Shown piece after piece: positions 1,083 through 37,254 of a stretch of 64,000 bases of DNA (position 1 is the stretch's first letter; every line of letters begins with the position of its first letter). Below the pieces are notes generated by a model, which saw only the letters and a program-made list of their open reading frames with translations, did no database searches and was not told where the DNA came from. A program made the translations under genes and the position numbers. Location of the stretch: the sequence record SRR31156797_7944; one strand, 5' to 3'.

Positions 1083-1631
1083 ATGGATCGAAAAAAAGTA
1101 TCGGTATCGTCCCGGCTCTCCGCAAGGCTCGATGCTGTAGAAAACACGCTGGACCGCTGGGGAGAGGGCTTAGAAAAGCGAAGATTCAGGCTCTACCCGG
1201 GCCTGGCCGCTTCGCTGCTGTTTATAGCCCTCTCCCTTCTGATCCTCCTGCTTATGCCCGATCAGATCAAGATAAGAGAAGGTCAGAGTATAACAGCCAG
1301 GACCTTCCCTTCCATGATGGCTTTCATCATGCTGGGAGGAGCCCTTCTCAATCTGGCCAAGGACGGCTTCAAACTAATCCGCAAGGGAAAGCTTCCCGCC
1401 ATTGAGCTCTGTCTCCGTACCGAAATCAAGGCGCTGATTCTTTTGGCATTTCTGATAATCTACGCGTCTCTGATGCCTCTTATCGGTTTCAGCATCGCAT
1501 CGCTGATCTACGGCATACTCATGCTCTTCTACTTCCGCATAAGGGACTTGAGGTACTATCTGCTGATCACGGTACTGGCCCTGGGCATAGGGTTTCTGTT
1601 TAAGAATCTGCTCCACGTCCGACTCCCCTAG
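1083..1631 (+). CDS. tctB: Tripartite tricarboxylate transporter small membrane subunit TctB
   Basis: 4-5 TM helices, 'RTFP' motif and C-terminal 'LLHVRLP'; lies between tctC and (beyond the prophage) tctA. Confidence 0.85.
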   Translation: MDRKKVSVSSRLSARLDAVENTLDRWGEGLEKRRFRLYPGLAASLLFIALSLLILLLMPDQIKIREGQSITARTFPSMMAFIMLGGALLNLAKDGFKLIRKGKLPAIELCLRTEIKALILLAFLIIYASLMPLIGFSIASLIYGILMLFYFRIRDLRYYLLITVLALGIGFLFKNLLHVRLP

Positions 1632-1632: not shown

Positions 1633-1694
1633 TGTAGCCCCGCGCGAAAAATCGGGGCAAATCATGCGAAATAACTTGCCCCTCTGAAATTTCA
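1633..1694 (+). promoter_or_regulatory. Left end with putative transposase-binding repeats
   Basis: GCGA(A/T)A units at offsets 12 and 34 from the end, the same offsets as in the inverted right end. Confidence 0.65.
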
Positions 1695-1719: not shown

Positions 1720-2349
1720 CTACTCAATCATCATCAATTCTGGTCTATACAACCGACGGTTCTCAAAAGGTGGCTCCCATGTTGCCAGAGCATTATCTTG
1801 CGGTGTGAAGGTTATCGTTCCACTCTCGATCTGCCTCAGGCATTCTATCAGTAGTTTAACCCCCAATGGAAAAAGGGCCTCTCTCCAAAGGGCCTTGTAA
1901 TCCCACCCTTTTCTTATCAATACCGGCTCCTGCCGAATGATATCTCCCCCGTCGACCTTATCTGATAGTTGGTAAACGGTTCCACCTGTAACACTATCTT
2001 TACAGTGTATCGCCCATCGCACAGCGTCCCGCCCTCGATGTCTTGGGAGAAGAGATGGATGGTAACCTATTGCATGCTGAACTTTGGCTCTTACCTTACC
2101 GCTGATGAAATGGTGGGAATGCGCTGAAATTAGAACATCTGTCTCTTCGGGAATATCAGATGACAGCAGCTTCTCACTGTCAATAATTACCGGGGATTGG
2201 GGATCGGTATATGCTGCTACTTTCAATTTATCAAAGTATTTTCCTTCATTTGGGCATGCTATACCTGTGATCTTATGGCCCTCGTTTTTCACTGCTTTAT
2301 AAACAGCTGCGCCGAATGATTTCTGACCTGCAATAAATACGCTAAGCAT
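1720..2349 (-). CDS. Stand-alone formyltransferase/10-formyl-THF-binding domain protein (phage, mom position)
   Basis: GYHPSLLPRHRG...TGGTVYQLSDKVDGGDI motifs; 209 aa, so no C-terminal tRNA-binding domain. Confidence 0.85.
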   Translation of the reverse strand: MLSVFIAGQKSFGAAVYKAVKNEGHKITGIACPNEGKYFDKLKVAAYTDPQSPVIIDSEKLLSSDIPEETDVLISAHSHHFISGKVRAKVQHAIGYHPSLLPRHRGRDAVRWAIHCKDSVTGGTVYQLSDKVDGGDIIRQEPVLIRKGWDYKALWREALFPLGVKLLIECLRQIESGTITFTPQDNALATWEPPFENRRLYRPELMMIE

Positions 2350-3457
2350 TGTTGTTTTCTCCTATGTAAGCAAAGCCTTGTATAGCTCTAAAATGGCCGC
2401 CGTAACGGCAATGTCCTGAACTTCCCAAGTATTTCGGCGACCTTGGTTTTCCGCCCTTCACATATAACCGTGCGCTCTTCTGAATCCAGTTGGTATCGCG
2501 TCTTAGGGCAGCAGCGAGCTGGGGGTGTGAAGTATGAAATAGAACAGGGAGTTTCTTATTTCGCCGTCCATACCCATCAAGGTGATATTGGCAGACAGCG
2601 TTTAAGAATCTCACCCCGATACCGGCCCCCTGCCACTCCGGCATTACAACCAGCCTTGTAGCCCTGTAATAGCCGCACTGGAAAAAGGGACATACAGCGA
2701 GGTGAGCTACAGGTTCACCGTTCACTATACCAACGAAATAGTGAGCGGCGATCGGCATCGGTAGGTCTAAATAATAATGTGGTTTAAAGTACTTCCAGTA
2801 ACTTCCATCCGCCTGTTTAATTTCCAGTTTGATTTTGGGGCGTTGAAGACAGCTCCTTTCATAACGGCCATCTTTTGTATCTATAACCCAGTCAGGCTGA
2901 AGCCATTCGAGGATATCGTAATGGGGGGAGAGTATTACGACCTTTCGGCCTTTTACTCGCCTCCAGGACTTTTGAAAAGCGTTGGCTCCGATCTTTGCTA
3001 TTTGACGGTCTATAACGCTGGTAAACTCATCAAGAACGATCTCTGTTTCATTACTGAGAAGAAGCCTGGCCAGACCGGCACGGAATTGCTCTCCATTCGA
3101 TAAAATGTGGTGAGGTCTGAGCCATGATGGGACGCTTCCTAAACCGACTGAGGATAAGGCCGAAGTAACCCTGTTGAAGTCGGCTTCGGGAGCGATTGAA
3201 TCTATTATAGGGAGATCAGCGTTCCAACCCGAATTCAGGTCATAAATTCCGTTAGAGAACAGCTCTAATCCCAGAGAGGTTTTTCCGCTTCCTGAAGGCC
3301 CGACAATGGCCCCTATAGACCATTCGAACTCATCTATATCAGTATCTACATTGAGGCTGAATTTATGGCCGTACTCGGCATTAAATAAGCTCTTCACCCG
3401 TGCGGCCCTATAGGTATCGAAATTGTGGCATTTCCGGTGTACTTTCAGGGTTCTCAT
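2342..3457 (-). CDS. ABC-type ATPase fused to a GNAT (Mom-like) acyltransferase
   Basis: Walker A GPSGSGKT, signature LSNGE, Walker B IVLDEF; C-terminal GNAT motif RLVVMPEWQGAGIG. Confidence 0.85.
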   Translation of the reverse strand: MRTLKVHRKCHNFDTYRAARVKSLFNAEYGHKFSLNVDTDIDEFEWSIGAIVGPSGSGKTSLGLELFSNGIYDLNSGWNADLPIIDSIAPEADFNRVTSALSSVGLGSVPSWLRPHHILSNGEQFRAGLARLLLSNETEIVLDEFTSVIDRQIAKIGANAFQKSWRRVKGRKVVILSPHYDILEWLQPDWVIDTKDGRYERSCLQRPKIKLEIKQADGSYWKYFKPHYYLDLPMPIAAHYFVGIVNGEPVAHLAVCPFFQCGYYRATRLVVMPEWQGAGIGVRFLNAVCQYHLDGYGRRNKKLPVLFHTSHPQLAAALRRDTNWIQKSARLYVKGGKPRSPKYLGSSGHCRYGGHFRAIQGFAYIGENNNA

Positions 3458-3585
3458 ACGCTCACCACCTTTAACTTCATACCTTTCTTCTTCAGGCTAA
3501 CAAATACAGTTTTCTGCTCTTTCTCATCCTTACATAGAACAATCACCCCATACTTCGGGGTGTACTTTATTTCTTTCTTATTCAC
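3454..3585 (-). CDS. Small 43-aa protein translationally coupled to the ATPase-GNAT gene (not in the ORF track)
   Basis: GGAG RBS and GTG start; MNKKEIKYTPKYGVIVLCKDEKEQKTVFVSLKKKGMKLKVVSV; ATGA overlap with the next gene. Confidence 0.7.
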   Translation of the reverse strand: MNKKEIKYTPKYGVIVLCKDEKEQKTVFVSLKKKGMKLKVVSV

Positions 3586-3660: not shown

Positions 3661-3744
3661 GGCGGTAGCGGTTTCCCGTAGGTGTTGGCGCACCTGCTCC
3701 GGGAGGTTCGTTCTCCTGGGGCTGCCGCCCTTTACAGCAGCCCC
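3661..3744 (-). ncRNA. Candidate structured leader RNA with alternative stems upstream of the modification cassette
   Basis: GGCGGTAGC(3661-3669)/GCTGCCGCC(3721-3729) outer stem; inner AGGTG-CGCCAA-CACCT hairpin; competing GGGGCTGC(3718-3725)/GCAGCCCC(3737-3744) stem. Confidence 0.5.
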
Positions 3745-3750
3745 GAATTA

Positions 3751-4290
3751 TTACATCTGAAACCAGTCAGGTCTCTCAGGTTCAATCCCTGTGGTAGGGG
3801 CATTCAGCCAGGCGGATCTCCACTCTGTATATTCTTCTTTCTGATTTCCACTCAATTCATTCCAGGGCAGCGGGAGCTGATACTTGTCAAAAATCGCGAA
3901 CTCAAATGAACGCTTCTTTCTGATGATTTTCAGTTCATGTTCGGCCTTTTCTTTAGGATCATTTTCCCACTTGTCACCGGTCCAATGCTCATATGGCATT
4001 CCAGATGGTTCTTTATCTGTCCAATTTGAATCAGGTGCCTTATCATATTCAGTTATTTCATATAACTGCTTGGTGGCCTTATCCCAGTACTTCCCTCTAT
4101 GATCCTTTATCAGGCCATCAGAAATAAGATCTGCAATAGGGCGGACTGAGCCTTTCTCATCAACCATATCGGCCCGCATACCTTTAGTTCCGTTAAAACA
4201 TTCTACGGCTTTATACTGGTTCCCTTTAGGGACTTTGGGAGCGTCATAGTGGCCTATGATTATCCCATCTCTGATTTCGATATATTCCAT
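3751..4290 (-). CDS. Tail fibre assembly/chaperone-like protein
   Basis: Follows the tail fibre; C-terminal 'WRSAWLNAP...PERPDWF' resembles fibre-assembly proteins. Confidence 0.55.
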   Translation of the reverse strand: MEYIEIRDGIIIGHYDAPKVPKGNQYKAVECFNGTKGMRADMVDEKGSVRPIADLISDGLIKDHRGKYWDKATKQLYEITEYDKAPDSNWTDKEPSGMPYEHWTGDKWENDPKEKAEHELKIIRKKRSFEFAIFDKYQLPLPWNELSGNQKEEYTEWRSAWLNAPTTGIEPERPDWFQM

Positions 4291-5243
4291 TAAGCAGTCC
4301 TCCTCCACTTTCTTATTGTACGGTTAGAAGGTCGAGTCTCAGAGCCAATACGCGGGGGGCCATTGACACCGTCTGATTTTGGATTATGTACATGATTTCT
4401 TCCGGCCTTAACCCTTGACTGTCGAACAGAGTCAACAGTTCCACCGGAAGGCGCATCCAAAGGCTCATAGTAAAATTCATGGAAATGACCTTGAAACTGG
4501 TCAAGCTGCTGACCCGATCCAAATGCAGAAGCGGCTCCACCCTCAATGCGATAGAAATCTCCAGCATCTTCTGATGAGACATTCTCCCATGTTCCCGGGT
4601 AGTTCCTCTGGGAAGGTGTCAATCCTCCTGGGAGCTGAAGGTAATCAGATCCGACAGGGAACATACTGTCCACATAAGCCTTTACGGCGGCCTGTTCAAC
4701 TGCCATTTCTGACATAGAAAGCAGCTGAGGCTTTCGGCTGTCTTCAGCCAACAGATTTTCCCAGGTGGAAGTCTCATCCAGCCGCAAATCCAGAATAGGC
4801 ACCTGGTATTCTGTAAAGTCCGGCTTTGTTATGTTCTCGGAGGTATCATTTACCCCGGGATCAATGATCTCAATCTCCACATCATCCAGATACTGAGCGG
4901 GGCAAGGCTGATTGTTAATATCAATAACCTGACCGTCTTCAGTGATCTTGTACCGGAGGGCTATCGTGACCCACCGGTATAGCCCGGCGCCGGGCCTGGC
5001 CAGGGTTCCCAGATCAGCCGTAAAGGCTTCTTCTTTCTGAAGAATACGTCCTAAACCATCAAAGCCGACACCGGCGGAAACCGATACCTGGCTGCCCGTT
5101 ATTGTTGCTTCGAAACCGGTTTTAATCCCCATTCCTGCGATAGAGGCGGCCACATTCTCCAGCCCGCTTTCAAGGCTCTCCTGCAGCTTGTCAAAATCCG
5201 GTTTATCAGGTGTAAAGCCGGATACGAAATTCACTTTATCCAT
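4290..5243 (-). CDS. Tail fibre protein
   Basis: Position after the baseplate genes; C-terminal 'QLDQFQGHFH...SETRPSNRTIRKW' collar/tip motif. Confidence 0.75.
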   Translation of the reverse strand: MDKVNFVSGFTPDKPDFDKLQESLESGLENVAASIAGMGIKTGFEATITGSQVSVSAGVGFDGLGRILQKEEAFTADLGTLARPGAGLYRWVTIALRYKITEDGQVIDINNQPCPAQYLDDVEIEIIDPGVNDTSENITKPDFTEYQVPILDLRLDETSTWENLLAEDSRKPQLLSMSEMAVEQAAVKAYVDSMFPVGSDYLQLPGGLTPSQRNYPGTWENVSSEDAGDFYRIEGGAASAFGSGQQLDQFQGHFHEFYYEPLDAPSGGTVDSVRQSRVKAGRNHVHNPKSDGVNGPPRIGSETRPSNRTIRKWRRTA

Positions 5244-6024
5244 TCGGTATAACCTCCCATTCAATGGACTCGTCTAATAAACTTTGGGTTCTTTCGGTAA
5301 CTGCCGGCAGATAGTCAGCCACGCAAGTTATCATCGTTTTTGGCGGATTCTCAGGGCCATATACAACGGAGTAGCCGACACGGGCGGAGCCGATAACAAA
5401 GGCGTCATCAGGGAGTATCCTTACTTCCAGATAACAGATGTCCGAGTACAGGGTTGCAAGCCACTTACTACCGCCGTATAGGCGGATCTGATCCAAAGTA
5501 AGGTCTTCCATCTCAGCAGTTATCCAGGGCTTGATGATGATTTTGATATCAGGATCCAGTACATCATCAAAGATGGCATAGAGCCGGTCATAATCGCCCT
5601 GGGTGAGCTGGCGGACCTTTATAGCGATAAAGAATCCGGCGCCGATCTTATCAACTCCGATACGGGAGTAGCCTACTCGGAAGCTATTCAATGGGGCCTC
5701 AAAGACGTCATATCTTCCGGGAATTATGCTCTCCAAGATTTCATATATCTGTCCTCGGAATCCTCGCTCCTCCATCCATTTTGAGCCGGTAGCGGTCCGG
5801 CTCCTTAATGCGTCTTCTGTGTCCCCGGGGAACTCAGGAATACCGAGTGCTGCTGAATGGCGTTTCAGCATTCTTGAATCGCAGAGGTAGGGGAAGAACG
5901 CCCTGGACACCTTATTGATATCTGAGGAGGCAATATCCCCGACTCGACCGATGGCCCGGAAAATGGCCCCACGGTTCTTCTTTCGAAGTCGTGGAGGGTT
6001 CAGTTTCTCGATAAGATCGGTCAT
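5236..6024 (-). CDS. Baseplate wedge/tail protein I-like
   Basis: Synteny after baseplate J; repeated F-x-[VI]-G-x-[SA]-R-[IV]-G motif. Confidence 0.6.
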   Translation of the reverse strand: MTDLIEKLNPPRLRKKNRGAIFRAIGRVGDIASSDINKVSRAFFPYLCDSRMLKRHSAALGIPEFPGDTEDALRSRTATGSKWMEERGFRGQIYEILESIIPGRYDVFEAPLNSFRVGYSRIGVDKIGAGFFIAIKVRQLTQGDYDRLYAIFDDVLDPDIKIIIKPWITAEMEDLTLDQIRLYGGSKWLATLYSDICYLEVRILPDDAFVIGSARVGYSVVYGPENPPKTMITCVADYLPAVTERTQSLLDESIEWEVIPNG

Positions 6025-16727: not shown

Positions 16728-17639
16728 TTACAGCCAGCGGCAAACCAGAACTTCAACAGCCTTATAGTTGGGGTTACTGCCGCCTCCGTCCTTCTTTTCA
16801 GCCTCGATCAGCGCCATGGCTGCGGCTCTGTTTTCGGGGGTAACAACCAGAAGGTTGGGCTGCAGGCCGAGCTTGGCACCGCCGTCCCTTGTGAAGGACA
16901 TCATCCTCTTGTAGGCTTCGTTGAAGTTCGCTTCGTTCAGCTCACCCCGGCATCCAATGGCCTGCTGCCAGAATCCATAACCGAATGCCCGGCGGACTCT
17001 AGCACCGTACAGGTACTGGTCCTTCATAAAGACCGTTTCCTGTTTGGAATCGGTGATGACTTCCAGTTCGGGTTTGGTCCTCTCCTGAAAGATCAGGGGC
17101 TTCACAGGGCGGCTGGTGTCCAAGAGGTACCAGGCGGGTTTATCCGTGACCAGCTCGTCGACGATGTTGCTTACAGAGCTGTCCGCGCCCGAACCATCTA
17201 CTTCAGCATTGATGGGGTGGTCCGTATCGAAAAAGTTCTGACCGTCGTAACAGAGGTTGGCAAAACCGGCCGGGAGGAGGCCGAACACTTCTCTGTCGAT
17301 ATGCTCCTGAACCTCCTGCCCCATGGCTTCAAACAGGGGATTATAGATCCCCATGTTGTCGTCTTCGATGTCCGTTCTTTCAACCTCAACGGTACCTTCA
17401 AACTTGTCGTTGGTGATGGTATACCCTTTCTCCCTGATGGACTTGAGGACTCTGTCCCCGACCCACTTTCTGAGCATGGGGAACTTCTCCAACCAGCCGT
17501 AGGTGTTCTCTTTGGAGGTGGAGGGTACGAGGGTTGCCACCTTGTTCCACTGGGTGGGGGCGGAATTCAGTGCTTTCTGGAAGATCCCGACAAAGAGCTT
17601 CCGCATGGTATCCAGAATTGCCGACTTAATTACAGCCAT
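16728..17639 (-). CDS. Mu-like major head subunit gpT
   Basis: 'YGWLEKFPMLRKWVGDR', 'CYDGQNFFDTDHP', 'KPLIFQER', 'GYGFWQ' motifs. Confidence 0.95.
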   Translation of the reverse strand: MAVIKSAILDTMRKLFVGIFQKALNSAPTQWNKVATLVPSTSKENTYGWLEKFPMLRKWVGDRVLKSIREKGYTITNDKFEGTVEVERTDIEDDNMGIYNPLFEAMGQEVQEHIDREVFGLLPAGFANLCYDGQNFFDTDHPINAEVDGSGADSSVSNIVDELVTDKPAWYLLDTSRPVKPLIFQERTKPELEVITDSKQETVFMKDQYLYGARVRRAFGYGFWQQAIGCRGELNEANFNEAYKRMMSFTRDGGAKLGLQPNLLVVTPENRAAAMALIEAEKKDGGGSNPNYKAVEVLVCRWL

Positions 17640-17642
17640 ATT

Positions 17643-18632
17643 TTACGCTTTCTCCTTTCCCAGGTACTCCCGGGCTTCTTCATCGCTGAGTCCCAGCTGT
17701 TCTGCCAGATTCTTTTCCTCAGCGTTCAGTTCGGTTTTCTCTTCGGGAGGCGTCCCCGGGGGTGTCTCTTCTCTGTTCGCCTCAACGATGACAGCGGCGC
17801 CCTCCATATGCTTCTCGAACTTCTCAAGGGACTCTTCACTGTTACACTGATCCAGATAGTAGTCCTTGCTGGAAGGAGCGATTTTCCCTTCCTTGACGGC
17901 CTTATCCACGGCAGCGGTAGCCTTCTCTTTCAGGCCGTCTTCCTTGATACGGTTCAGCTCGGTCTCGGCTGTCTCCGCTCTTTTCCTGACTGTGTTGTAG
18001 TCATCGCGGGGGACCATCTCCGAGTTGATCTCGGACTTAGTTTTCAGATCCTTGATAGCGTCAAGGACTTCCGTTTCGGTTGCTTCAGCATTCAGGCTGA
18101 GAGCAGTTAAAATGGATTCAGGAAACAATTCTTCGCCTCCTTTAGGCTCTTCGTGATTTAATGCCGGAAACGGCAGGTTGGGTGAATTGGTTAATCCGAT
18201 GGATTTGACGAACAGAACATCCCTTGATGCCCGGTTCACTCGGTATACGGGTGAGTAATAGCGGTACTCATTGTTTTCAAGGGCAGTCTGACCGGATGAG
18301 TTCCATTCGACTTTTCCGAATAGGGCCCCGTCTTCCGTTTTGAATTCTTTGATCCAGCCAACCGCCGGGGCGGATTCCCCCTTAGGGGCCTTCAGTTCGG
18401 TGGAGTGTTCAATATCAATAACAGGATCGAGACCACGCTTTTCCTGGTTCAGAGCGATTTTCTCAGCTCCTGGGTTCCGGTAGAACCGGCCGTCCCTTCC
18501 CCGGAATTTCTTATCAGAGGGGACGAGGGGGAGCCATTCGGGAACGGCCCCCCCTTGCGGGAGTGGGAGAACCCGGTTCATTTCCAGGTCTTCAGGTATG
18601 GTACTGTTCAGCTCATCTGCGGCGTTAAACAT
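17643..18632 (-). CDS. Mu-like capsid protease I/scaffold Z
   Basis: 'IDIEHST', 'APAVGWI', 'YRYYSPV', 'GLTNSPNL' motifs. Confidence 0.9.
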   Translation of the reverse strand: MFNAADELNSTIPEDLEMNRVLPLPQGGAVPEWLPLVPSDKKFRGRDGRFYRNPGAEKIALNQEKRGLDPVIDIEHSTELKAPKGESAPAVGWIKEFKTEDGALFGKVEWNSSGQTALENNEYRYYSPVYRVNRASRDVLFVKSIGLTNSPNLPFPALNHEEPKGGEELFPESILTALSLNAEATETEVLDAIKDLKTKSEINSEMVPRDDYNTVRKRAETAETELNRIKEDGLKEKATAAVDKAVKEGKIAPSSKDYYLDQCNSEESLEKFEKHMEGAAVIVEANREETPPGTPPEEKTELNAEEKNLAEQLGLSDEEAREYLGKEKA

Positions 18633-18698: not shown

Positions 18699-19382
18699 TC
18701 AAGCATGAAACAAACCATTGAAAAATGCTTGTGTCGAAGAGAAAATTGAGAGAACGGTATTGAATTCAGCCACCAGAGTAACGACCCCACTGGCAAGGCT
18801 TATAAGAGAAACAATTCCTGCGATCAGCTTGAAAAATAAAGAACCGGTGATCTTTCTGGCGAATGAGGCGCTTATGATTCCTACACTAGATATTATATAA
18901 ATGGGGGCTGATAGAATATTACTGTACCCTACTTGAAGTAGCTTAAGAGGATTCTTTAGAACCTTAACAATATCTGTCTTCATATTTTTAAGATCACCAA
19001 TTTCTCTCAATATTGCTTCCTGTATCATGCTGGCGTACATATTTCGATCTCGTTCGAACAGGTATTCCCCAAAGTACTGGTTAATTTGTGATAAGCCATT
19101 AATAATAAGTGCATAATTTGAGTGTATTGCTCCTATCGCCGGTTCTCTTAATGTAACCAACCCCTGCTGGCCCAACATGCTTTGCATTTTGTTACTATTC
19201 ATAGTCAGGTAAGTATACTTATCCAAATCCCGACCTTGGCTTTTCATATACCCATTAAAGTTTTTCAAATACTCAGTGGCAAACTCCAAATATCCGTTGG
19301 TCTTATGAATATTCCATATAGTATAAGTAAATCCTATTAGAATCGGGAGGAAAATAAATCCTGAGGCGATTAAGTACTTCAT
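18699..19382 (-). CDS. AT-rich membrane protein moron
   Basis: N- and C-terminal TM segments; low GC; TATAAT upstream (19431-19436), just after the early-operon terminator. Confidence 0.7.
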   Translation of the reverse strand: MKYLIASGFIFLPILIGFTYTIWNIHKTNGYLEFATEYLKNFNGYMKSQGRDLDKYTYLTMNSNKMQSMLGQQGLVTLREPAIGAIHSNYALIINGLSQINQYFGEYLFERDRNMYASMIQEAILREIGDLKNMKTDIVKVLKNPLKLLQVGYSNILSAPIYIISSVGIISASFARKITGSLFFKLIAGIVSLISLASGVVTLVAEFNTVLSIFSSTQAFFNGLFHA

Positions 19383-19440
19383 AAGCTTTCCTTTTCTATG
19401 ATGTGCTGTAGTTAAAATAACAAAAAATCCATTATAAAAC

Positions 19441-19469
19441 AAAAAAGGCGGGATTTGCTCCCGCCCTTC
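19441..19469 (-). terminator. Rho-independent terminator ending the early operon
   Basis: GGCGGGA-GCAAA-TCCCGCC followed by T6 on the minus strand. Confidence 0.75.
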
Positions 19470-19538: not shown

Positions 19539-19859
19539 TTACATTTCAAACAGTTCGCCCGGCACAGGGGCCTTTTTTTGATTCGATGCGTGTAGCCTTT
19601 TCTGGTGACGGTGGCAAGCCTGATATACGGCCTTGAAATTGGTATCAAATTTCCGGCAGATCTCCTGCATATTCGTCCCGTCAAAGCTCTCATAGATTGC
19701 CTTATCCCGGTCCTCCTTAAAGGCGGCCCCGGGACGGGGAAGATATATCTGAACGCCTCCGATAGAATCCAATATCTCCCGGACTATCTTCTTGGACTTC
19801 TCTTCATCACCGACGACTTTCTGTACGCTATCAATCATCATGGCCACTGTCTCTGTCAT
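19539..19859 (-). CDS. mor: Mor/C family transcription activator
   Basis: 'IGGVQIYLPR...RDKAIYESFDGTNMQEICRKF' Mor signature. Confidence 0.85.
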   Translation of the reverse strand: MTETVAMMIDSVQKVVGDEEKSKKIVREILDSIGGVQIYLPRPGAAFKEDRDKAIYESFDGTNMQEICRKFDTNFKAVYQACHRHQKRLHASNQKKAPVPGELFEM

Positions 19860-20259
19860 CTTGCCTCTCCACACGCTCCAGCCAGGCTTTCAGATCTTCG
19901 ATAAGCTTGCTCATCTGTTGGCCAGTCAGGATATCCTGATCTGACCCGATCTGCCGTTTAATCCAGGACTGCAGGGCGCTGTAACGTTTATTCCTGACGG
20001 CTCCCAGCTCGTAAAGGCTGCACCATAGGGCATAGCACTTCGCCATCTGCGGATCCCGGATCTTCCGTTCCCTATTGTACCGGAACCCCAGAAATTGAAA
20101 AGCGCGCATGATTTCCTTGTATTGGGCCTCCGTTTTCAGCCCGGCGGCGGAGTCAATTCCGGCCGCGCCGAAAAGGAGGGCCCTATATGATTCATCATCA
20201 AGACCGCACTCCTTTCGGGCGATGTGAATGGTTGCCAGTTTCTTCCGGCGGTCCTTCAT
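19831..20259 (-). CDS. gemA: GemA/Mu gp16 (DUF1018) regulatory protein
   Basis: 'IHIARKECGLDDESYRALL...ALW...LIEDLKAW' motif. Confidence 0.85.
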   Translation of the reverse strand: MKDRRKKLATIHIARKECGLDDESYRALLFGAAGIDSAAGLKTEAQYKEIMRAFQFLGFRYNRERKIRDPQMAKCYALWCSLYELGAVRNKRYSALQSWIKRQIGSDQDILTGQQMSKLIEDLKAWLERVERQDDRDSGHDD

Positions 20260-21154: not shown

Positions 21155-22261
21155 TCAAACTGCTGCCAGCGTATGTGAGTCCACAACATCCTGGCCGACT
21201 TCCGCCGCTGCATTCATCGCCTGCTTGATCAGATTGTTCACGGTCAGAGGGTAGGCCATGGAATAGCGGGTCCGACGGGTTGTTCTGGTCAGCTTATCGA
21301 TGGCCGCCTTATACACGGATTTGTCCAGGACGTTATCATGCTTGATTCCCACCCGGGCAAACTTCAGCTTGAGGTACTGCTCAAGGTCCACCTCTTTGTT
21401 GAGGGGCTCCAGTTCAGCAACTTCCATCCGGCGGATGATCTCGCGGGCCTCGAAGTTCCGGCTTTCATCCAGCTTGGTTTTCAGCTCGGGCTGGGCTACC
21501 AGGATGACCGAAAGCAGCTTCTTAAAACCGTCTTCCAACTCCCAAAACCTTTTCAGATATTTCAGGGTCTGAATGGTCAGATCATGGGCCTCCTCAATCA
21601 TCAGGACATGGCTGAAACCGGAGCGGGAGGAATCGGTCAGGATTCGCTCTATCTGTCTGGCTTTGGCCTCAAGGGTCCGCCGGGGGTGTTCCGTGGAACA
21701 GTCCTGAATAATGGAGTCGCATATGGCCGTGGCTGTGAGTCGCTCCTTGTCGATGATCCGGGGGAAGATGATCTTGATCTTAAGCCCCTCGTTATTGATC
21801 CGGTCGATGAGTAAGCGACGGAGTGTAGTCTTGCCCGAGCCGGATTCCCCTATGACCGCCAGCATCCCGCCGTTACGGGCGATGGAGTACATGTACTCCG
21901 ATACATACCTTGTACCGGCGCCCAGGAAAACATCCTTTGCTTCGTTTACATCATCGAGAAAAGGATCTTTAAAAATCTTAAACTGCTTCTTTGCCGCTGC
22001 TGATATCATTACACATACCTCCTGTAATACCTGCTGCTCCTCTTCCTCCGGGCTCGGCGTCCTCTCCCACAGACCCTTTCTGTAGACGCCGCGCTCGGCG
22101 AGAAATTCATTGATCATCTGGCGGAGCTCTTTGGCTCGCCCTTTGGGGAACTCCCCTCTGCTGATAATCTGGCTGACTGTACTTTTAGCCAGCCCCAAAT
22201 ATTGTGCCAGCTCTACCTGCGTGGCTCCTGATTCAACCAGTGCTTTCCTTACCTGCATCAT
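21155..22261 (-). CDS. Transposition B-type AAA+ ATPase (ExeA-like) with N-terminal HTH
   Basis: GESGSGKT Walker A, 'IEEAHDL' Walker B; follows the transposase. Confidence 0.9.
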   Translation of the reverse strand: MMQVRKALVESGATQVELAQYLGLAKSTVSQIISRGEFPKGRAKELRQMINEFLAERGVYRKGLWERTPSPEEEEQQVLQEVCVMISAAAKKQFKIFKDPFLDDVNEAKDVFLGAGTRYVSEYMYSIARNGGMLAVIGESGSGKTTLRRLLIDRINNEGLKIKIIFPRIIDKERLTATAICDSIIQDCSTEHPRRTLEAKARQIERILTDSSRSGFSHVLMIEEAHDLTIQTLKYLKRFWELEDGFKKLLSVILVAQPELKTKLDESRNFEAREIIRRMEVAELEPLNKEVDLEQYLKLKFARVGIKHDNVLDKSVYKAAIDKLTRTTRRTRYSMAYPLTVNNLIKQAMNAAAEVGQDVVDSHTLAAV

Positions 22262-23930
22262 CCCCTCCCATTCCCATTAGGATGCTTTCAAGAGTGTCGA
22301 GAGCACTGTCCGGTACGCCGTTCGGAAAGTTCGTCCGTATGATGCCGAAGTAGGCGCTCTCCCAATAATTCAGTCGGTGTTTCAATTCTTTGGCCGCTTC
22401 TACCGTTGATAGAATGACTTCCGGTGCTTCCGGCGGCTTGATCTGCTGGCCGCTCCTGGGAACCGGGATAATGTTTGATGTCTCCCTCCTTATCGTTGAA
22501 ATGGTCTTCAGCCCCTGGCCGTCGTTCCAGTCGGCAAAAGGATGCTTCTCATCCCCGATGGCCTCATCCAAAACCTTGCCTGCCTTTTCGACATAGGTTT
22601 CTTTGTTGGATTTAAACTCCTCACCCCAGACTGCCGCGTCCATATGGAACCCGGCTTCGTCGAGTTCTATGGGGATAAACTCTTCCGCGAAATCATCGCC
22701 CTGCCAGGTGTGGGACACTCGGATAACACCGCCCGCGTCCATCAGGATCGGCTGAACCTCTACTATCGAACCGGGACGGATACCGGGCAATCCGCCGACG
22801 GCATAGGGCCGGGGCTCCTTCAGCCGGGGGTGTATAAAGCTTATCTTCAGATCAGCTCCTACCTTCCGTTTCACCGGGTCTTTCACAAAGAGAGACCGTG
22901 TGTCATCCGGCAGCTCTCTCAGCTTGCCGTGGGGTATGGTGAGCCAAAGGGACAGACGGGTTTTATTCGCCCTTCTCAGGGTGGAATCGTAGTACTCGAT
23001 TTCCCCGGCGTTATAGGCTGAGCACCAGATCTCTGCCGCCCTGTTAAGCTCATCAACATTCATACAGGGCTCGTACTTCAGGCGGCTCTCGAAGAGCTTC
23101 TCCACAATGTTATTGGAAGTCTCGACCTGTCCCTTGGCTCTCGGTCTTCCCTGCTCATGGGCAATCGCTTGAATCCTCAGCCCTCTACAGGCGTTCTGTA
23201 TCCCCTGTGAAATGTTGGCCGAACCCTTATCCCAAACCATGATCTCCGGTACCCCGTGGAACTGGTAGGTCGGGTCGTTCTTTTTTTTCCAGGCGTACAA
23301 AAGGAAATCCCAAAGCGTAACCGACGATTCACCGGCCACCTGGTAATACCTCATGCAGATCGAGGCCGAGTAATGATCGGTAAGAACATAGCGCCAGACC
23401 TTCAGATCTTCTTTCCCCTTTAGGAAAGGTTTGTTCTTGTAGACCTCATCATCCCGGATTATCTTCTGTCCTCCTTTGGGGAGGTAGTAGACCAGGCATA
23501 CCGAGGGGTCAACCTGATGTACATGGTTGGGGTACAAGCTCCGCATTCGGGTATGGCTGGAGTCCTGTCTCTGGCTTTGAACGTCCAAGCCTCTTTCTTT
23601 AAGAAGCTCACAGAGCCGCCCATTGGAGACTCCGAAATGAACTCCGTTCGATTCAAGGGAAGCCCGGGCGTTGGGCACCTCCATGGTGACCTTCCCGTTC
23701 TTCCTGACGCCGACCTTTGCCATGGCCGCCAGGGCGATCAGATCATCATCCTTCACTCCAGTGGTCCCTGCGTCCTTCCGCTTCTTTCGTCCGGATTCAT
23801 ATCCGGCCTTATGCAGCTCCCGATAAACCTTGTCTTTTGACCAACCGTAGAGCCTACCGATCTCGGCTATCAGTTTTCCTTTCTCCCCCCGACCGGCGCT
23901 CTGCAGCCGGGGGATATAGGCGTCAATCAT
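22233..23930 (-). CDS. DDE transposase A (B3/BcepMu-like)
   Basis: 'PNHVHQVDPSVCLVYYL', 'WRYVLTDHYS', 'DKGSAN', 'PRAKGQVE' integrase-core motifs. Confidence 0.9.
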   Translation of the reverse strand: MIDAYIPRLQSAGRGEKGKLIAEIGRLYGWSKDKVYRELHKAGYESGRKKRKDAGTTGVKDDDLIALAAMAKVGVRKNGKVTMEVPNARASLESNGVHFGVSNGRLCELLKERGLDVQSQRQDSSHTRMRSLYPNHVHQVDPSVCLVYYLPKGGQKIIRDDEVYKNKPFLKGKEDLKVWRYVLTDHYSASICMRYYQVAGESSVTLWDFLLYAWKKKNDPTYQFHGVPEIMVWDKGSANISQGIQNACRGLRIQAIAHEQGRPRAKGQVETSNNIVEKLFESRLKYEPCMNVDELNRAAEIWCSAYNAGEIEYYDSTLRRANKTRLSLWLTIPHGKLRELPDDTRSLFVKDPVKRKVGADLKISFIHPRLKEPRPYAVGGLPGIRPGSIVEVQPILMDAGGVIRVSHTWQGDDFAEEFIPIELDEAGFHMDAAVWGEEFKSNKETYVEKAGKVLDEAIGDEKHPFADWNDGQGLKTISTIRRETSNIIPVPRSGQQIKPPEAPEVILSTVEAAKELKHRLNYWESAYFGIIRTNFPNGVPDSALDTLESILMGMGGDDAGKESTG

Positions 23931-26862: not shown

Positions 26863-27771
26863 TTGAGCTTAGATAATCGATTTAAAGAAGTTCGTACTTT
26901 TCTGGGTGTGAATCAAAAGCAGTTTTCAGAAAAACTGGGGATTACTCAGGGCTCTCTAAGCAAAATTGAGTCAGGACGGCAGGAGCCCTCACTTTCGTTA
27001 ATAGATAAAATATTCCGCATAGGAATAAATATCACTTGGCTCCTTACCGGGGAGGGCTCTATGTTTCTAACTCCTCCCACTATCGGTAAACGTTTAATTG
27101 TGGCCCGGCAGGAATACGGCTGGGAACGGGATGTTGTCGCCTCCATGGGCGGGATTTCTATACCCGAATATGAAGCTATCGAAAGGGATGAACAGGAGCC
27201 TAATCTTGAGTTCCTTCAGAAGCTTGAAGGGAATACAAATATCAGCTCCCATTGGGTAATGACCGGCAAAGGGCAGATGTTCACTCTCAGCTCTAAGCCC
27301 CAGCTCCCTACACATATTCATACCGAGTCAAAAAGCATTACCCTTTCTGACCGCGATGATGTGATAATGGTACCGGTTCTCGATCAGTCCGTTTCCGCTG
27401 GCCCTGGGCAGGAGCTGACTGGCTCTACCTTTACCGATGTAACTATACCGATCCTGAACAGCATAATTTCCCCGTATCCGCCGCAGGCTATCAGGGTCGT
27501 TGAGGTCCGGGGGGATTCGATGACCGGCGTCAATCTCTTTGATGGAGACTTTGCGATCTTTGTTCAGGGGGAGGTCCGCTCCGATGGGATCTATGTGATC
27601 AGCATCGGCTCTGATCTGTTCGTGAAGCGGCTGGAATTTGACCCGTTTGAGAAGAAGATCAGCATCATTTCAGAGAACTCCCACTACGAAAAGAAAGTAG
27701 TGGACGCGGATTCTGAACTGGTAAGGATTGAAGGGAAGGTTATCGGGTGGATGCATAAGCATCCGTATTAA
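26863..27771 (+). CDS. CI-like repressor with two tandem XRE HTH domains and an S24 autopeptidase
   Basis: Two HTH units ending 'WLLTGEGSMF' and 'WVMTGKGQMF'; VSAG cleavage site, GDSM and VKRL catalytic motifs. Confidence 0.9.
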   Translation: MSLDNRFKEVRTFLGVNQKQFSEKLGITQGSLSKIESGRQEPSLSLIDKIFRIGINITWLLTGEGSMFLTPPTIGKRLIVARQEYGWERDVVASMGGISIPEYEAIERDEQEPNLEFLQKLEGNTNISSHWVMTGKGQMFTLSSKPQLPTHIHTESKSITLSDRDDVIMVPVLDQSVSAGPGQELTGSTFTDVTIPILNSIISPYPPQAIRVVEVRGDSMTGVNLFDGDFAIFVQGEVRSDGIYVISIGSDLFVKRLEFDPFEKKISIISENSHYEKKVVDADSELVRIEGKVIGWMHKHPY

Positions 27772-27811: not shown

Positions 27812-28618
27812 TTGGGCGATTCAGGACTCGTTTATCACTATACAGGAATCGATGGCCTACTTGGTATTCTGGGTAAAGAAGAGTTATGGCTTTCCAACTT
27901 TCTCTATTCAAATGATAAAGAAGAGCTTCAATTCGGTTTAAAGCTCTATAAGAAAATCATAGCATCACAGAGCTCTGACCTTGTAACAACTTTCGCTGAT
28001 ATCGTTGAAATGCTCTACGCCACTTTCCAATACTATATTTGTTCATTCTCCCCACACGGGAGTCAGTTAAGTCAATGGAGGGGTTATACATCGCCAGAGG
28101 GGGCCTTCTCAATTGGTGTTGATATTTCAGATCTTAGGTCTCTTAAAAATGGGACAGATTCAGGGATTTATATAGAAATAAAGGACTGTATATATGGGGA
28201 ATCAGCGGTAACTAACGAACTAGAAGAAGCAATAAAAAAAATACAGGATACTCTTATAGGCAGATTTCCAGACAATCTAGCGAAGCCTTCTCGAGTAAAA
28301 TCAATAACTGAAACGATATTTAATGAAATTGTTCCTATAATCGCTGTTGCCAAGCATTCGATTTTTTATCAAGAAGAAGAAATCAGGTATATGATGTTCC
28401 CTCAAAAGAGTACCGAGATGAGTTTTCGTCGGAATAATAACCTGATACTTCCTTATATTACTACTCCATTCCCGAGATCAATAATTAGAAAAATCAATAT
28501 TGGCCCCCAAGTCAAGCAGGAACAAAATTATGAGGCTATTAAATTGATGCTTCATTCATATGGGATGGAAAAAAATTGTGAGCTTGAAATTGTTGATTCT
28601 CCATATTGCGGTTGGTAA
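27812..28618 (+). CDS. DUF2971 family protein (moron)
   Basis: 'YHYT', 'SNDKEE', 'CSFS...LSQWRGY', 'K..F.QEEEIR', 'IGP' motifs; low GC. Confidence 0.8.
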   Translation: MGDSGLVYHYTGIDGLLGILGKEELWLSNFLYSNDKEELQFGLKLYKKIIASQSSDLVTTFADIVEMLYATFQYYICSFSPHGSQLSQWRGYTSPEGAFSIGVDISDLRSLKNGTDSGIYIEIKDCIYGESAVTNELEEAIKKIQDTLIGRFPDNLAKPSRVKSITETIFNEIVPIIAVAKHSIFYQEEEIRYMMFPQKSTEMSFRRNNNLILPYITTPFPRSIIRKINIGPQVKQEQNYEAIKLMLHSYGMEKNCELEIVDSPYCGW

Positions 28619-28663
28619 AAAAAAATTGAGACTTGTTATCATAAAATATGATCTGGAGCTTTA

Positions 28664-29701
28664 GTGAGAAAGAGTAATATCGTAAGAATACGTTTGAAAA
28701 AAAAACGTATCAGAAAAAGAGCAAAATTAGATAGAGTCCATTCGTATAAGAATTATTGGAAAAAAAAGAAGCGAAAGAATAAATGCTGCTCGAGTAATGG
28801 AGTTGGAGTCATTCGAAAGAACTGGATTGAATTCCCAGAGCATTTATCGATTACAGCTGATGCAGAAACACTCGTACATGTCTTAAAGGACGCGGAAAAA
28901 CAAGAGTTACCCACACTTAGTTTTCGTAAATCTAATTTTGTAACAATCAGTGCCGGGGTCTATTTAAGAGCGTTCTGTGATCATCTCAAGATTGAGGGTA
29001 ACGGTTATAAAATAAGTTGCCCTCCTAAAAACCGAAAAATGAGAGAAGTCCTCCAATTTTTAGACATACATAATTTTGGTGTGAAGATAAAAAGGGACGA
29101 TTTGGTTTGTTGGGAAATCAGGTCTTGGGACTTACATCAGTCTGCTCCGAACTTCGCAAAGCTTTTAATGGAGGATATCTTACCGGATGTGCTAAAGGGA
29201 AAGTTCCCCTCAGAGGATTTCAACGAGATTGCTTCAACCCTGCAGGAAGTATTATGGAATTGTGTTGAGCATGCTTATGATAAGAATGCAGAGTATAAGT
29301 TCAAGCGGTACTACTTAATTGCCGGGGAATACTTAAATTCCGACTATTTCGCCTTCTCAGTTGTTGACAGGGGGCAAGGTTTCTTAGAAAGTTTAAAGCA
29401 ACAGGATCTTTCATTTTACCAGAAGTACATGTCATCTGAATCTAAGATGATAAAAGCAGCTGTAAATGGACAAAGCGGAGCTGGGAAGCAGGATGAGGGA
29501 CGGGGCACAGGCCTTCAAAGTGTATTGGATCGTGTGAAGAAAATGAAAGGTGAATTTTTTATTTATAGTGGTAAGGGTTTTTATCATTTTAAGAAGGACT
29601 CCGAAATAATTGAAGATCATGATGAATTTATAAAAGGTGCTCTATTTACTATGATTCTGCCGATAAGTGAAAACAAAGAGGGCAGAGAGGATGAAACATG
29701 A
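28664..29701 (+). CDS. STAS-like region plus GHKL/HATPase domain protein (moron)
   Basis: 'EVLWNCVEHAY' N-box, 'DRGQG' G1-box, 'RGTGL' G2-box, 'KGAL' G3; low GC. Confidence 0.8.
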   Translation: MRKSNIVRIRLKKKRIRKRAKLDRVHSYKNYWKKKKRKNKCCSSNGVGVIRKNWIEFPEHLSITADAETLVHVLKDAEKQELPTLSFRKSNFVTISAGVYLRAFCDHLKIEGNGYKISCPPKNRKMREVLQFLDIHNFGVKIKRDDLVCWEIRSWDLHQSAPNFAKLLMEDILPDVLKGKFPSEDFNEIASTLQEVLWNCVEHAYDKNAEYKFKRYYLIAGEYLNSDYFAFSVVDRGQGFLESLKQQDLSFYQKYMSSESKMIKAAVNGQSGAGKQDEGRGTGLQSVLDRVKKMKGEFFIYSGKGFYHFKKDSEIIEDHDEFIKGALFTMILPISENKEGREDET

Positions 29702-30012
29702 AATTATTAAAAATATTAGATTGTGGAGATAGGTTTAAATATCAAGGACCAAGATTTAAAGAATTAGGCCCAGAATCTGGCGAAGAATTTAGGGATGACT
29801 TTTTTATCCCTTGGCTGAATGACAACAAAGGAGAAGAGCTTACAGTCGATTTTGAAGGTACACAGGTTTACACACCGTCCTTTCTTGAGGAGTGTTTTGG
29901 AGGAGCTATTAGAAAAGGTTTCGTTGAAGTTAAAACCATGAAGTTTATTAATATCAAATCGGAAGAACTGACAAGATTGAATAATTTTATTTCTAAGGCG
30001 AAACCTCAATGA
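29698..30012 (+). CDS. STAS-like DUF4325 protein
   Basis: 'SGEEFRD...VDFEGT..YTPSFLEECFGG' signature with the conserved Ser. Confidence 0.8.
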   Translation: MKLLKILDCGDRFKYQGPRFKELGPESGEEFRDDFFIPWLNDNKGEELTVDFEGTQVYTPSFLEECFGGAIRKGFVEVKTMKFINIKSEELTRLNNFISKAKPQ

Positions 30013-30473
30013 ATTCAGAGATCATATTATCATTACTATCTGGTTTGGTAGGTGTTATTGTCGGTAGCTTCATTCAAATTGCCTATACAATCAAATTTGA
30101 TAAGAAAAAAACTTCAGTCGACTATATAAAGCTTATTTGTACTGAATGGCTTGGTCTCTCTGCCCAAGCTCAGGAATTACTCAATAACCCTGCTGTATAT
30201 AATCATATGATTTTCAATCTACACATAAAAGAAAAAGCAAATCTTCTTAGTTATATAATGCCCTTCTATGAAAGAGACACCGTGAAGTCAAGGCAGATTT
30301 CAAAGTTGCAAGCATTAATTAAAGATAAGGGTGAAGAGTTTTCATTAGATCCAAGGTTTGAAGGGGCTCTAACAAAGGGAGAAAATGAAGGCGACAAAAG
30401 GCTATTCTTGGTTGAGCTAACGAACTTCATAAATGATATACATGAGAAGCTTACAGAAATTGCTCGTGATTAA
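30009..30473 (+). CDS. N-terminal TM helical protein (moron)
   Basis: 'LSGLVGVIVGS' TM anchor; ATGA-coupled to the DUF4325 gene. Confidence 0.65.
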   Translation: MNSEIILSLLSGLVGVIVGSFIQIAYTIKFDKKKTSVDYIKLICTEWLGLSAQAQELLNNPAVYNHMIFNLHIKEKANLLSYIMPFYERDTVKSRQISKLQALIKDKGEEFSLDPRFEGALTKGENEGDKRLFLVELTNFINDIHEKLTEIARD

Positions 30474-31228
30474 ATATTGAAAGATTCCCCAGGATTATGC
30501 TCAAATCCTGGGTCTATTCCCTCATACCCTTCATGAACCTCTCCGGTCCTCTTGTTCACGTAGGTTTTCTTTTTCAGCTCCGGCGGATCGGTCTTGATCT
30601 TGATCGTTTTCGTCGGCTTCCCATCTATCATGCTGGTCATATCCGGTAATCCCTTTTTCTGGAGTTGACGAAATTTCGCTCTTGAGACCGCACGGGATTT
30701 GCATTTACAACCCCATCCGTTTTTCGGATTATGGGTTTTCCAGAAGGGGTGATCCTTGGGGAGAACGAGCCCGTCCCATTCAAGGTGCGTAAGGCGGTGT
30801 TCCATCGAGGGGCCGATCCTATAGAGAAAGTACGGGTGGGCATCGGATTTCATCCCCCTCTCCCATACTCCTTTCTGATAGGCCTGGCCGGTGTTCACAT
30901 CGAATATCGTTTTGATCCGGCGGGGGCTCCCCAGCTGGGAATCGACCATTTCTCCCGTCTTCGGATCTTGGACCTTCTTAACACCCCACCAGCCTTTCTT
31001 TTTCAGGAGCTCCGTGGTTTCAGAGGCCCATTGCTTGTAGGTTTTCCCTTCTTTCATGGCCTGGGTGATGGATTTCCGGACATCTTCCAGGAGATCCGTT
31101 TCCATCATCTTGGCAATGGTAAAGGCCTGGTTGTGCTCCTGCAGCCAGACATCCATATAGTGAAAGGAAGGTTTCAGCCCTTTATTCTCAAGGTATGCGA
31201 TCGCTTCTTTAGGGATAGGAGGGGCCAT
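30470..31228 (-). CDS. Mu gpF/gp30 minor head morphogenesis protein
   Basis: 'AFTIAK', 'KKGWWG', 'GSPRRIKTIF', 'FWKTHNPKNGWGCKC' motifs. Confidence 0.9.
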   Translation of the reverse strand: MAPPIPKEAIAYLENKGLKPSFHYMDVWLQEHNQAFTIAKMMETDLLEDVRKSITQAMKEGKTYKQWASETTELLKKKGWWGVKKVQDPKTGEMVDSQLGSPRRIKTIFDVNTGQAYQKGVWERGMKSDAHPYFLYRIGPSMEHRLTHLEWDGLVLPKDHPFWKTHNPKNGWGCKCKSRAVSRAKFRQLQKKGLPDMTSMIDGKPTKTIKIKTDPPELKKKTYVNKRTGEVHEGYEGIDPGFEHNPGESFNI

Positions 31229-34800: not shown

Positions 34801-34803
34801 GAA

Positions 34804-36532: not shown

Positions 36533-36550
36533 ATTTCCTCCATTGGAAAA

Positions 36551-37248: not shown

Positions 37249-37254
37249 CCTAGG
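37249..37254. repeat. Right target-site duplication CCTAGG
   Basis: Identical to 1627-1632. Confidence 0.9.

Follow-up and report, generated by a model that had tools for sequence, protein, structure and literature searches.

A phage gene cassette encoding a ParB-type mini-domain, an ABC ATPase-GNAT fusion and a formyltransferase, a candidate DNA acyl/formyl modification module at the end of a Mu-like prophage

What is the function of three overlapping genes that close a Mu-like prophage and encode a small protein, an ATPase fused to an acyltransferase, and a formyltransferase? The question is raised by the 64,000-nucleotide stretch of DNA SRR31156797_7944, the whole of which is called the window here. 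A transposable Mu-like prophage of 35.6 kb (about 1633-37249) lies in the window between the host genes tctB and tctA, and the three genes are the last ones at its tail-fibre end, 87 bp from the prophage end. They encode a protein of 43 amino acids (aa), a 371-aa fusion of an ABC-type ATPase and a GNAT acyltransferase (ATPase-GNAT) and a 209-aa formyltransferase (FT). A first-pass annotation had proposed that this cassette is a new DNA-modification system at the position that mom occupies in Mu. In this study, we examined the cassette and its relatives by computation, and we assign a probability of about 0.5 to the reading that it is a late, post-replicative module for acyl/formyl modification of DNA.

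The three minus-strand genes are translationally coupled, as had been described, and their open reading frames (ORFs) were recovered to the nucleotide. Direct reading showed that the 43-aa gene overlaps the ATPase-GNAT gene by 4 nt (ATGA), that the ATPase-GNAT gene overlaps the FT gene by 8 nt, and that ribosome-binding sites precede the first start (GGAG) and the third start (AGGAG). Together with the co-occurrence described below, these overlaps bear out the earlier view that the three genes are one conserved functional unit. The cassette is separated from the tail fibre assembly gene by a gap of 165 bp and might be a transcription unit of its own, like mom in Mu. A GC-rich 8-bp stem with an 11-nt loop, without a T-run, is present on the minus strand at 3718-3744, directly after the stop codon of the tail fibre assembly gene and about 130 nt ahead of the cassette.

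The 43-aa product had at first been regarded as an unknown small protein. Judged by its sequence, it is instead a stand-alone homologue of the C-terminal mini-domain (CTD) of a ParB-like protein. It matches phrog_28816 (E = 4.5e-14) and has no match in Pfam. At loci where tblastn found no small homologue, a full ParB-like protein is encoded upstream instead, and the last ~35 residues of such ParB-like proteins align with the 43-aa protein as a strand-helix-strand unit that ends in V-x-V/L at the stop. The stop codon of the CTD-bearing gene abuts the start of the ATPase-GNAT gene. We surveyed 199 loci (6 annotated, 113 from IMG/VR and 80 from genomes) with profiles built from our own alignments. 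The CTD was found at the end of the ORF abutting ATPase-GNAT in 184 of the 198 loci with room for it, and slightly farther upstream in 7 more. These 184 loci comprise 116 with a ParB N-domain and the CTD, 60 with the CTD only and 8 cut by the end of the contig; the CTD-only forms are confined to the clade at least 45% identical to the query. In 8 of 150 family representatives, the ParB N-domain, the CTD and ATPase-GNAT form a single polypeptide, and Pfam sees ParB_N in one of them. The CTD of the window gave a profile match with an E-value of 2.9e-24, the sole ParB-related match there. From this survey, the 43-aa gene is a remnant of the ParB partner, and the CTD is the part that is always kept. 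A search for longer proteins carrying the 43-aa domain was weak, with three candidates, none of which was scored; the mini-domain may also connect ParB with DNA methyltransferases. The retention of a 35-residue ParB tail as a gene of its own may mark the part of ParB that contacts the client enzyme, a question that is open for the ParB-dependent thymine dioxygenases according to the accessible part of PMC13229309.

ATPase-GNAT proteins are carried by phages and prophages of Spirochaetes, Bacteroidota, Bacillota, Actinomycetes, Proteobacteria, Verrucomicrobia, Planctomycetes and others. Among phage records, tblastn found 91 with ATPase-GNAT, 33 of them at a coverage of 80% or more, and 44 with FT. 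In a library clustered at 90%, 6,408 of the 8,000 scored candidates matched ATPase-GNAT at E up to 1e-3; in a library clustered at 50%, 2,774 representatives matched at the same threshold and 501 at E up to 1e-30. The co-occurrence of FT with ATPase-GNAT, which had been expected, was confirmed in both directions. FT lies directly downstream of ATPase-GNAT in 125 of the 199 loci, all of them in the clade at least 45% identical to the query. At identities of at least 50%, FT was present in 53 IMG/VR loci, absent from 2 and without room in 1; it was present in 68 and absent from 12 of the genomes, and present in 3 annotated loci. Between 40 and 50% identity, 3 IMG/VR loci lacked it, 1 had no room and 1 annotated locus (Gordonia) had it, no genome falling into this range. 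Below 40% identity, 50 IMG/VR loci and 2 annotated loci lacked it and 3 IMG/VR loci had no room, again with none from the genomes. Dereplication by single linkage at ~80% identity gave 122 clusters, and those at identities of at least 45% comprised 63 with FT, 13 without and 1 with no room (63 of the 76 with room). The reverse survey covered the best 80 of 425 IMG/VR stretches that encode FT relatives: ATPase-GNAT was encoded directly upstream in 77, 1 kb upstream in 1, and 2 had no room. Thus, this FT subfamily is essentially confined to the cassette. At one locus (L262), about 1 kb (about 1500 to 2504) lies between ATPase-GNAT and FT. No tail genes in common with the window phage were found when the tail genes of the window were compared with all loci by tblastx, so the cassette moves independently of its neighbours.

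The 371-aa protein matches phrog_11143 (E = 2.9e-137), which is annotated as 'unknown function'. Pfam detects ABC_tran at residues 92-146 (29.7 bits; cut-off 25) and Acetyltransf_1 at residues 237-294 (23.3 bits; cut-off 20.7), with Acetyltransf_1 and Acetyltransf_7 together spanning residues 237-297. In an alignment of 105 sequences, Walker A (S55, G56, G58 and K59), the signature (L119, S120 and G122), Walker B (D143 and E144) and the H-loop (H179) are invariant; in the GNAT domain, Y229 is invariant and the acyl-CoA motif (R268, Q276, G277 and G279) is nearly so. The AlphaFold2 model of the protein has two domains (pLDDT 91.3, pTM 0.85). Foldseek with the whole model returned ABC nucleotide-binding domains exclusively, with transporter-type ones such as MalK, Wzt, FtsE and PhnK, and the GNAT domain was therefore folded alone (pLDDT 86.6). 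An ABC transporter was considered, since the nucleotide-binding fold and motifs are present, but rejected: the neighbours are a 43-aa soluble protein, an FT and a tail fibre assembly gene, and in relatives they are ParB and terminase genes. In one family representative of 715 aa (P0289), an intein with Hint and LAGLIDADG homing endonuclease domains interrupts the ATPase part.

The GNAT domain differs between loci with and without FT. H252, M272, E274, W275, F307 and H308 are fixed in the FT-linked GNATs and different in the FT-less clade, and residues 307/308 are changed in 3 of 7 close relatives that lost FT. M272-W275 form the end of the strand leading into the acyl-CoA motif and F307/H308 belong to the next strand; in GNATs, these strands flank the acyl site. 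A predicted complex of ATPase-GNAT with FT, for which alignments were unused, scored 0.21 (mark 0.34) and carries no weight either way.

FT matches the Pfam family Formyl_trans_N (PF00551; E = 9.1e-18, 65.1 bits against a cut-off of 26.1) and phrog_9240 (E = 6.2e-53). Among solved structures, the top match by sequence is the hydrolase domain of 10-formyl-tetrahydrofolate (10-formyl-THF) dehydrogenase (E = 1.5e-21), followed by Met-tRNA formyltransferase (6e-11), GAR transformylase (6.5e-09), a sugar N-formyltransferase (9.5e-09) and HypX/HoxX (6e-04). Residues 4-192 of FT align with residues 3-201 of the dehydrogenase, with the GYHPSLLPRHRG stretch almost identical, and His97, Ser99 and Asp133 align with His106, Ser108 and Asp142. 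H97 and S99 are invariant in two alignments of the family (A2 and A4), and D133 is invariant in A2 and nearly so in A4. FT ends at residue 209, the end of the catalytic subdomain, and has neither a second domain nor a C-terminal tRNA-binding domain. Identification as fmt, PurN or ArnA was rejected because the scores are far below the NCBIfam cut-offs (70.7 against 201.5 for TIGR00460, 37.1 against 150.1 for TIGR00639 and 48.9 against 777, respectively); the missing tRNA-binding domain also argues against fmt. The YHPS motif, the lack of a tRNA-binding domain and the similarity to the 10-formyl-THF hydrolase domain had all been recognized before and were upheld here, and by sequence FT is of this hydrolase-domain type. 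In the dehydrogenase, His106, Ser108 and Asp142 of this domain serve in moving formyl from 10-formyl-THF to the carrier domain, where the thiol of 4'-phosphopantetheine accepts it, and a like production of formyl-CoA is proposed for the N-domain of HypX (both from the accessible part of PMC6802093). The earlier idea that FT performs a separate step on the base did not fare well: since the closest relatives of FT pass formyl to a pantetheine thiol, FT may feed the GNAT domain instead. Some FT copies, in Porphyromonas phages and one IMG/VR contig, are shortened at the N-terminus to ~157 aa and keep the region of the catalytic His and Asp (L006:6122-6595 and L007:5107-5610). C-terminal FT-like stretches in three representatives (P0251, P0266 and P0328) were considered as fusions and set aside as probable products of gene calling or frameshifts, on truncated ATPase-GNAT pieces.

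For this module, we infer DNA as the target, acyl chemistry, roles for the ATPase and the CTD, and a formyl-thioester relay, as follows. The cassette would be expressed late, and phage DNA would be modified after replication and before packaging. The 43-aa CTD would dock on ATPase-GNAT as a dimerising or activating adaptor. The fused ABC ATPase may be a clamp or switch, powered by ATP, for engaging DNA or exposing a base; transporter-type ABC modules act as a clamp or switch in soluble enzyme complexes such as those of SufC and PhnK, and PhnK was an enzyme-associated match in Foldseek and SufC was among the sequence-search matches. A CoA thioester would be the donor of a small acyl group that the GNAT domain places on an amine of a nucleobase. 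FT would make a formyl-CoA or formyl-pantetheine thioester from 10-formyl-THF, the clade-specific pocket of the GNAT would use this thioester, and the final DNA mark would carry a formyl group. The link to DNA is suggested by the near-universal CTD partner, by the ParB fusions and by neighbouring genes for DNA metabolism, DNA modification and packaging. The setting is in keeping with the DNA modification first proposed, and with late expression, given the ParB partner, the DNA-metabolism and terminase neighbours and, in Mu-like phages, a place after the tail fibre or invertase genes.

A relay in which FT supplies the GNAT is the sub-mechanism that we favour, though with a rather low probability. 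A donor-supplying role of FT is preferred because its nearest relatives are thiol-directed, because the FT subfamily never occurs alone, and because GNAT residues near the acyl-CoA motif (M272, E274, W275, F307 and H308, and also H252) track the presence of FT. The full chain, in which a formyl thioester made by FT is used by a specialised, ABC-driven GNAT docked by the ParB mini-domain to leave a formyl-containing mark on phage DNA, is slightly more doubtful than the relay itself.

Several results weigh against the module as proposed, and the first group concerns the formyl group. FT was found in none of the 44 clusters below 45% identity (1 further cluster had no room). Because it is absent from these distant clusters and from 13 of the 76 close ones, the GNAT is generally not dependent on FT, and FT-less relatives function without it. 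Where close relatives are FT-less, the cassette is followed by genes for terminase subunits, by host genes or by ORFs without a family, and no substitute transferase was found among them. Furthermore, formamides on exocyclic base amines are hydrolytically labile, which is unfavourable for a simple N-formyl base as a durable mark in the virion. The main alternative within the DNA reading is a two-step hypermodification of the kind first proposed, in which the GNAT adds an amine-bearing or other acyl group and FT then N-formylates that group, or the base itself, directly from 10-formyl-THF. The apparent functioning of FT-less relatives agrees with FT as an optional, second decoration; formamides on aliphatic amines are chemically stable, and a phage formyltransferase makes a formyl-bearing 7-deazaguanine, which is a phage DNA base. 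The co-occurrence and context data apply equally to both schemes. However, amine formyltransferases carry the Asn of the N-x-H motif at the position of Gly95, two residues before the catalytic His, and a Gly that is nearly invariant in A2 and invariant in A4 is what our alignments show. The closest relatives of FT are thiol- or water-directed (1.5e-21 against 6e-11 for Met-tRNA formyltransferase), its scores lie far under the NCBIfam cut-offs for fmt, PurN and ArnA, and the clade-specific changes lie in the GNAT strands beside the acyl-CoA motif. We therefore regard the two-step scheme as rather unlikely.

The second group concerns DNA. No DNA-binding domain was detected in any cassette protein with Pfam or NCBIfam, and neither fold search, for the ABC or for the GNAT domain, points to DNA. 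The ABC domain resembles transporter-type nucleotide-binding domains in Foldseek and not those of DNA-handling ABC ATPases; the top fold matches of the GNAT domain are RimI and SpeG, acetyltransferases of proteins and small molecules (TM-score ~0.6, 9-15% identity). A ParB N-domain was not found in the 64-kb window with a custom ParB-N profile at E up to 10, so the argument from ParB touches this prophage through the CTD alone. The target may instead be RNA, tRNA, aminoacyl-tRNA, a host or phage protein or a small molecule, modified for host takeover or anti-defence. Such a target would agree with the GNAT matches to protein and polyamine acetyltransferases and with the transporter or translation-factor type of the ABC domain, an ABC-F model being among the weak NCBIfam matches. 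The tRNA cytidine acetyltransferase TmcA has an analogous combination of an ATPase with a GNAT, and on Met-tRNA the amino group formylated by formyltransferases is also the one acetylated by GNAT toxins. A Porphyromonas phage record labels the small upstream gene 'acr candidate', and in 2 of 69 loci genes for ASCH domains adjoin the cassette; one ASCH protein acts as an N4-acylcytidine amidohydrolase, according to the accessible part of PMC6972931. On the other side, the near-universal ParB-CTD partner, the ParB fusions and the DNA-metabolism, methylase and packaging neighbours point to DNA, and FT is without a C-terminal tRNA-binding domain. A PADLOC scan placed the cassette in no defence system; it gave a local match of ATPase-GNAT to mad3 at residues 114-180, a stretch that includes the ABC signature and Walker B. 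A target other than DNA is therefore judged improbable, though about on a par with the two-step scheme.

The genomic neighbourhoods differ among relatives. In Burkholderia phage phiE255, the tail fibre assembly gene is followed by gp28 (54 aa), gp29 and gp30 (formyltransferase), and Pseudomonas Komp_PAO1_1 has the same order of tail fibre assembly gene, small gene, ATPase-GNAT and FT. In Porphyromonas phages, the small gene, ATPase-GNAT and a short FT are located at the genome end. Gordonia phage BiggityBass encodes a protein with a ParB-like nuclease domain, an ATP-binding-cassette-like protein, an FT annotated as 'tRNA-methyltransferase' and the terminase. In Streptococcus Javan141 and Lactococcus P335, a ParB-like protein, an ABC ATPase and a separate GNAT ORF precede the small and large terminase genes, and FT is absent. 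Among 69 dereplicated loci with enough flank, a terminase subunit recognized by Pfam is encoded by one of the first two downstream ORFs in 36; other downstream neighbours are host genes at prophage ends, PAPS-reductase-like genes (2 loci), an N6/N4 DNA methylase (1) and ASCH genes (2). Adjacency to terminase is seen in 33 of 54 loci with ParB and CTD and in 1 of 7 with the CTD only, although these numbers are small. The ASCH, PAPS-reductase-like and N6/N4 methylase neighbours are at L087:2270-2632, L097:1771-2202, L042:5692-6597, L119:4017-4901 and L126:5572-6591. Upstream neighbours include SSB (4 loci), C5 DNA methylases (2), HNH, a Toprim primase, a 5'-3' exonuclease and lysis genes. The closest genomic relative, a locus in a Treponema metagenome-assembled genome (L121:2600-3566, 72% identity), has a gene for a tail-fibre C-terminal domain, a resolvase-type invertase and then the cassette, an order that parallels S/U-gin-com-mom of Mu. 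The assignment to the mom position thus stands for the window prophage and some Mu-like relatives; it does not extend to the family, whose commonest site is just upstream of the terminase.

This commonest site raises the possibility of a packaging accessory, in which the ParB-like protein and the ATPase would aid terminase in finding or processing DNA while a packaging protein would be the substrate of the GNAT and FT. In those 36 loci, terS/terL directly follow the cassette, and in Gordonia phages genes 1-3 precede the 'terminase' at the place expected for the small terminase. However, the cassette is far from terminase and follows the tail fibre genes in the window prophage, phiE255, Komp_PAO1_1 and the Porphyromonas phages, many loci have a recognizable small terminase of their own, and two intact small-group transferases are left unexplained. 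A packaging role therefore seems distinctly improbable. Least probable of all is an FT that stands on its own as an auxiliary metabolic gene, hydrolysing 10-formyl-THF to reshape the folate pool and merely travelling with ATPase-GNAT, as its PHROG category ('moron, auxiliary metabolic gene') and the name hydrolase for the isolated dehydrogenase domain might suggest: in 77 of 80 relatives ATPase-GNAT is encoded directly upstream, in unrelated phages without tail genes in common with the window prophage, translation of the genes is coupled, and GNAT residues co-vary with the presence of FT.

The prophage itself is complete, as its termini (TGTAG...CTACAC, both junctions read directly) and the 5-bp target duplication indicate. 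PHROG scans took in 44 further ORFs of the window and identified, besides the genes in Table 1, genes for sheath, tape measure and baseplate. The order of the genes departs from that usual in Mu-like phages: genes for lysis, small and large terminase, portal and Mu-F-like proteins (30470-37003) are at the other end from the tail genes, and the repressor and the early region (transposase A, B and Mor) split them from the protease and major head genes (16728-18632). Beside the repressor, a block of low GC content at 27812-30473 (+), with a GC fraction of 0.367 in 28001-30000 and ~0.5 around, runs against the main phage direction. It encodes a DUF2971 protein, a histidine-kinase-like ATPase protein, a DUF4325 (STAS-like) protein and a 154-aa ORF and looks like a moron or defence cassette; PADLOC found no match in it. 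A 247-aa ORF at 18699-19442 (-), between the Mor-like activator and the head protease, had no match in Pfam, PHROG or PADLOC.

Table 1. Positions of the cassette, the prophage features and the host flanks in the window
Feature	Position	Strand	Remark
43-aa gene	3454..3585	-	ORF list; GTG start, GGAG 7 nt upstream
371-aa ATPase-GNAT gene	3457..2342	-	ORF list
ABC-type ATPase domain of the 371-aa fusion	2843..3457	-	residues 1 to ~205
GNAT acyltransferase domain of the 371-aa fusion	2345..2842	-	residues ~206-371
209-aa FT gene	1720..2349	-	catalytic subdomain only
Terminator-like hairpin (12 pairs and T-run), just past the FT stop, inside the prophage end	1654..1682	-	consensus match only
Tail fibre assembly gene, upstream neighbour of the cassette	3751..4308	-	phrog_105, E = 3.7e-08
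Tail fibre gene	5264..4290	-	PHROGs
Transposase A	23930..22233	-	PHROG
Transposition protein B	22261..21155	-	PHROG
Mor-like activator	19874..19539	-	PHROG
Repressor	26863-27771		PHROG
5-bp direct repeat CTAGG	1628-1632 and 37250-37254		direct reading; register ambiguous by 1 nt; copy at 1628-1632 adjoins the right prophage end; element from 1633
Host tctC and tctB, one prophage flank	77-892 and 1083-1631		Pfam
Host tctA, other prophage flank	37279-38847		

In calling the system 'new', the first-pass annotation claimed too much, because acylation of a DNA nucleobase by the ABC-ATPase/GNAT core is already a published prediction (Iyer et al. 2013, NAR 41:7635, cited in section 3.4.7, within the accessible part of PMC7824862). 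The linkage to FT does hold as an addition, as no paper on it was found; our literature searches found no experimental work on the ATPase-GNAT family and no mention of an FT partner. The present analysis adds the identity of the 43-aa protein as a ParB mini-domain, the clade-restricted and reciprocal linkage of FT, and the relay hypothesis. If the cassette does mark DNA, a common and chemically uncharacterised phage DNA modification has been missed so far, which bears on the evasion of restriction and defence, on sequencing artefacts and on enzyme tools. If the full chain with a formyl mark were true, it would be an undescribed natural DNA modification made by the first GNAT known to use formyl-CoA, and FT would join 10-formyl-THF dehydrogenase and HypX as the third formyltransferase fold with a pantetheine thiol as its acceptor. 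The FT-linked clade thus gives a concrete chemical hypothesis, formyl transfer via a thioester, that is testable in cultivable phages of Gordonia, Pseudomonas and Lactococcus.

The cassette shares features with several known systems. In TmcA/NAT10, an NTPase module is fused to a GNAT and the amine of a nucleobase is acetylated in an NTP-dependent manner; the NTPase-GNAT layout is alike, whereas the ATPase there is helicase-like and the substrate is RNA, and the ATPase here is of the ABC type. No TmcA chain is among the Foldseek matches listed for the GNAT domain (to rank 50, with gaps). With the conserved His/Ser/Asp triad and, presumably, the use of 10-formyl-THF, FT resembles the hydrolase domain of 10-formyl-THF dehydrogenase and the N-domain of HypX; unlike them, it has no OB-like second subdomain, carrier domain, dehydrogenase domain or decarbonylase domain.

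In the transposable phage Mu, mom closes the tail-fibre end behind a small gene and its product, an adenine modifier, serves DNA modification, which resembles the arrangement here; Mom belongs to the GNAT superfamily (accessible part of PMC7824862). Homology to Mom was rejected: hhalign gave a probability of 0.1% (E = 0.56), BLASTP gave an E-value of 0.64, and the two proteins fall into different families (phrog_1384 against phrog_11143). Mom is without an ATPase and without an FT, and com of Mu is annotated as a translational regulator whereas the small gene here encodes a homologue of a ParB CTD. Of the link to Mom that had been drawn, the position is thus retained and the similarity in sequence or profile is not; the relation is positional only.

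Phage ParB homologues consisting of a nucleotide-binding domain and a CTD, without a DNA-binding domain, activate post-replicative thymine dioxygenases, and both domains are needed (accessible part of PMC13229309). As in the cassette, the gene for the ParB homologue lies beside that for a phage DNA-modifying enzyme, and the CTD is required there. The enzyme there is an Fe/2-oxoglutarate dioxygenase in place of ATPase-GNAT, the likeness of the two CTDs is one of description, and the window keeps the CTD alone. The ParB fold is also frequently fused to DNA methyltransferases in phages, according to the accessible part of PMC12704722.

The predicted ABC-ATPase/GNAT system of PMC7824862 is like the cassette in that an ABC ATPase is coupled to a GNAT, is phage-borne and is uncharacterised. 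Tenacibaculum phage pT24 is the example named in the accessible part of that paper, and a homologue of the 371-aa protein was found in pT24, matched by phage name, by tblastn (E = 1e-42, 38.9% identity, 76% coverage). The accessible part of PMC7824862 mentions neither a formyltransferase nor a ParB mini-domain, and Iyer et al. 2013 may cover part of this. Compared with that predicted system, the form in the window belongs to a distinct clade (at least 45% identity) that has FT, here with the ParB CTD in the absence of the N-domain.

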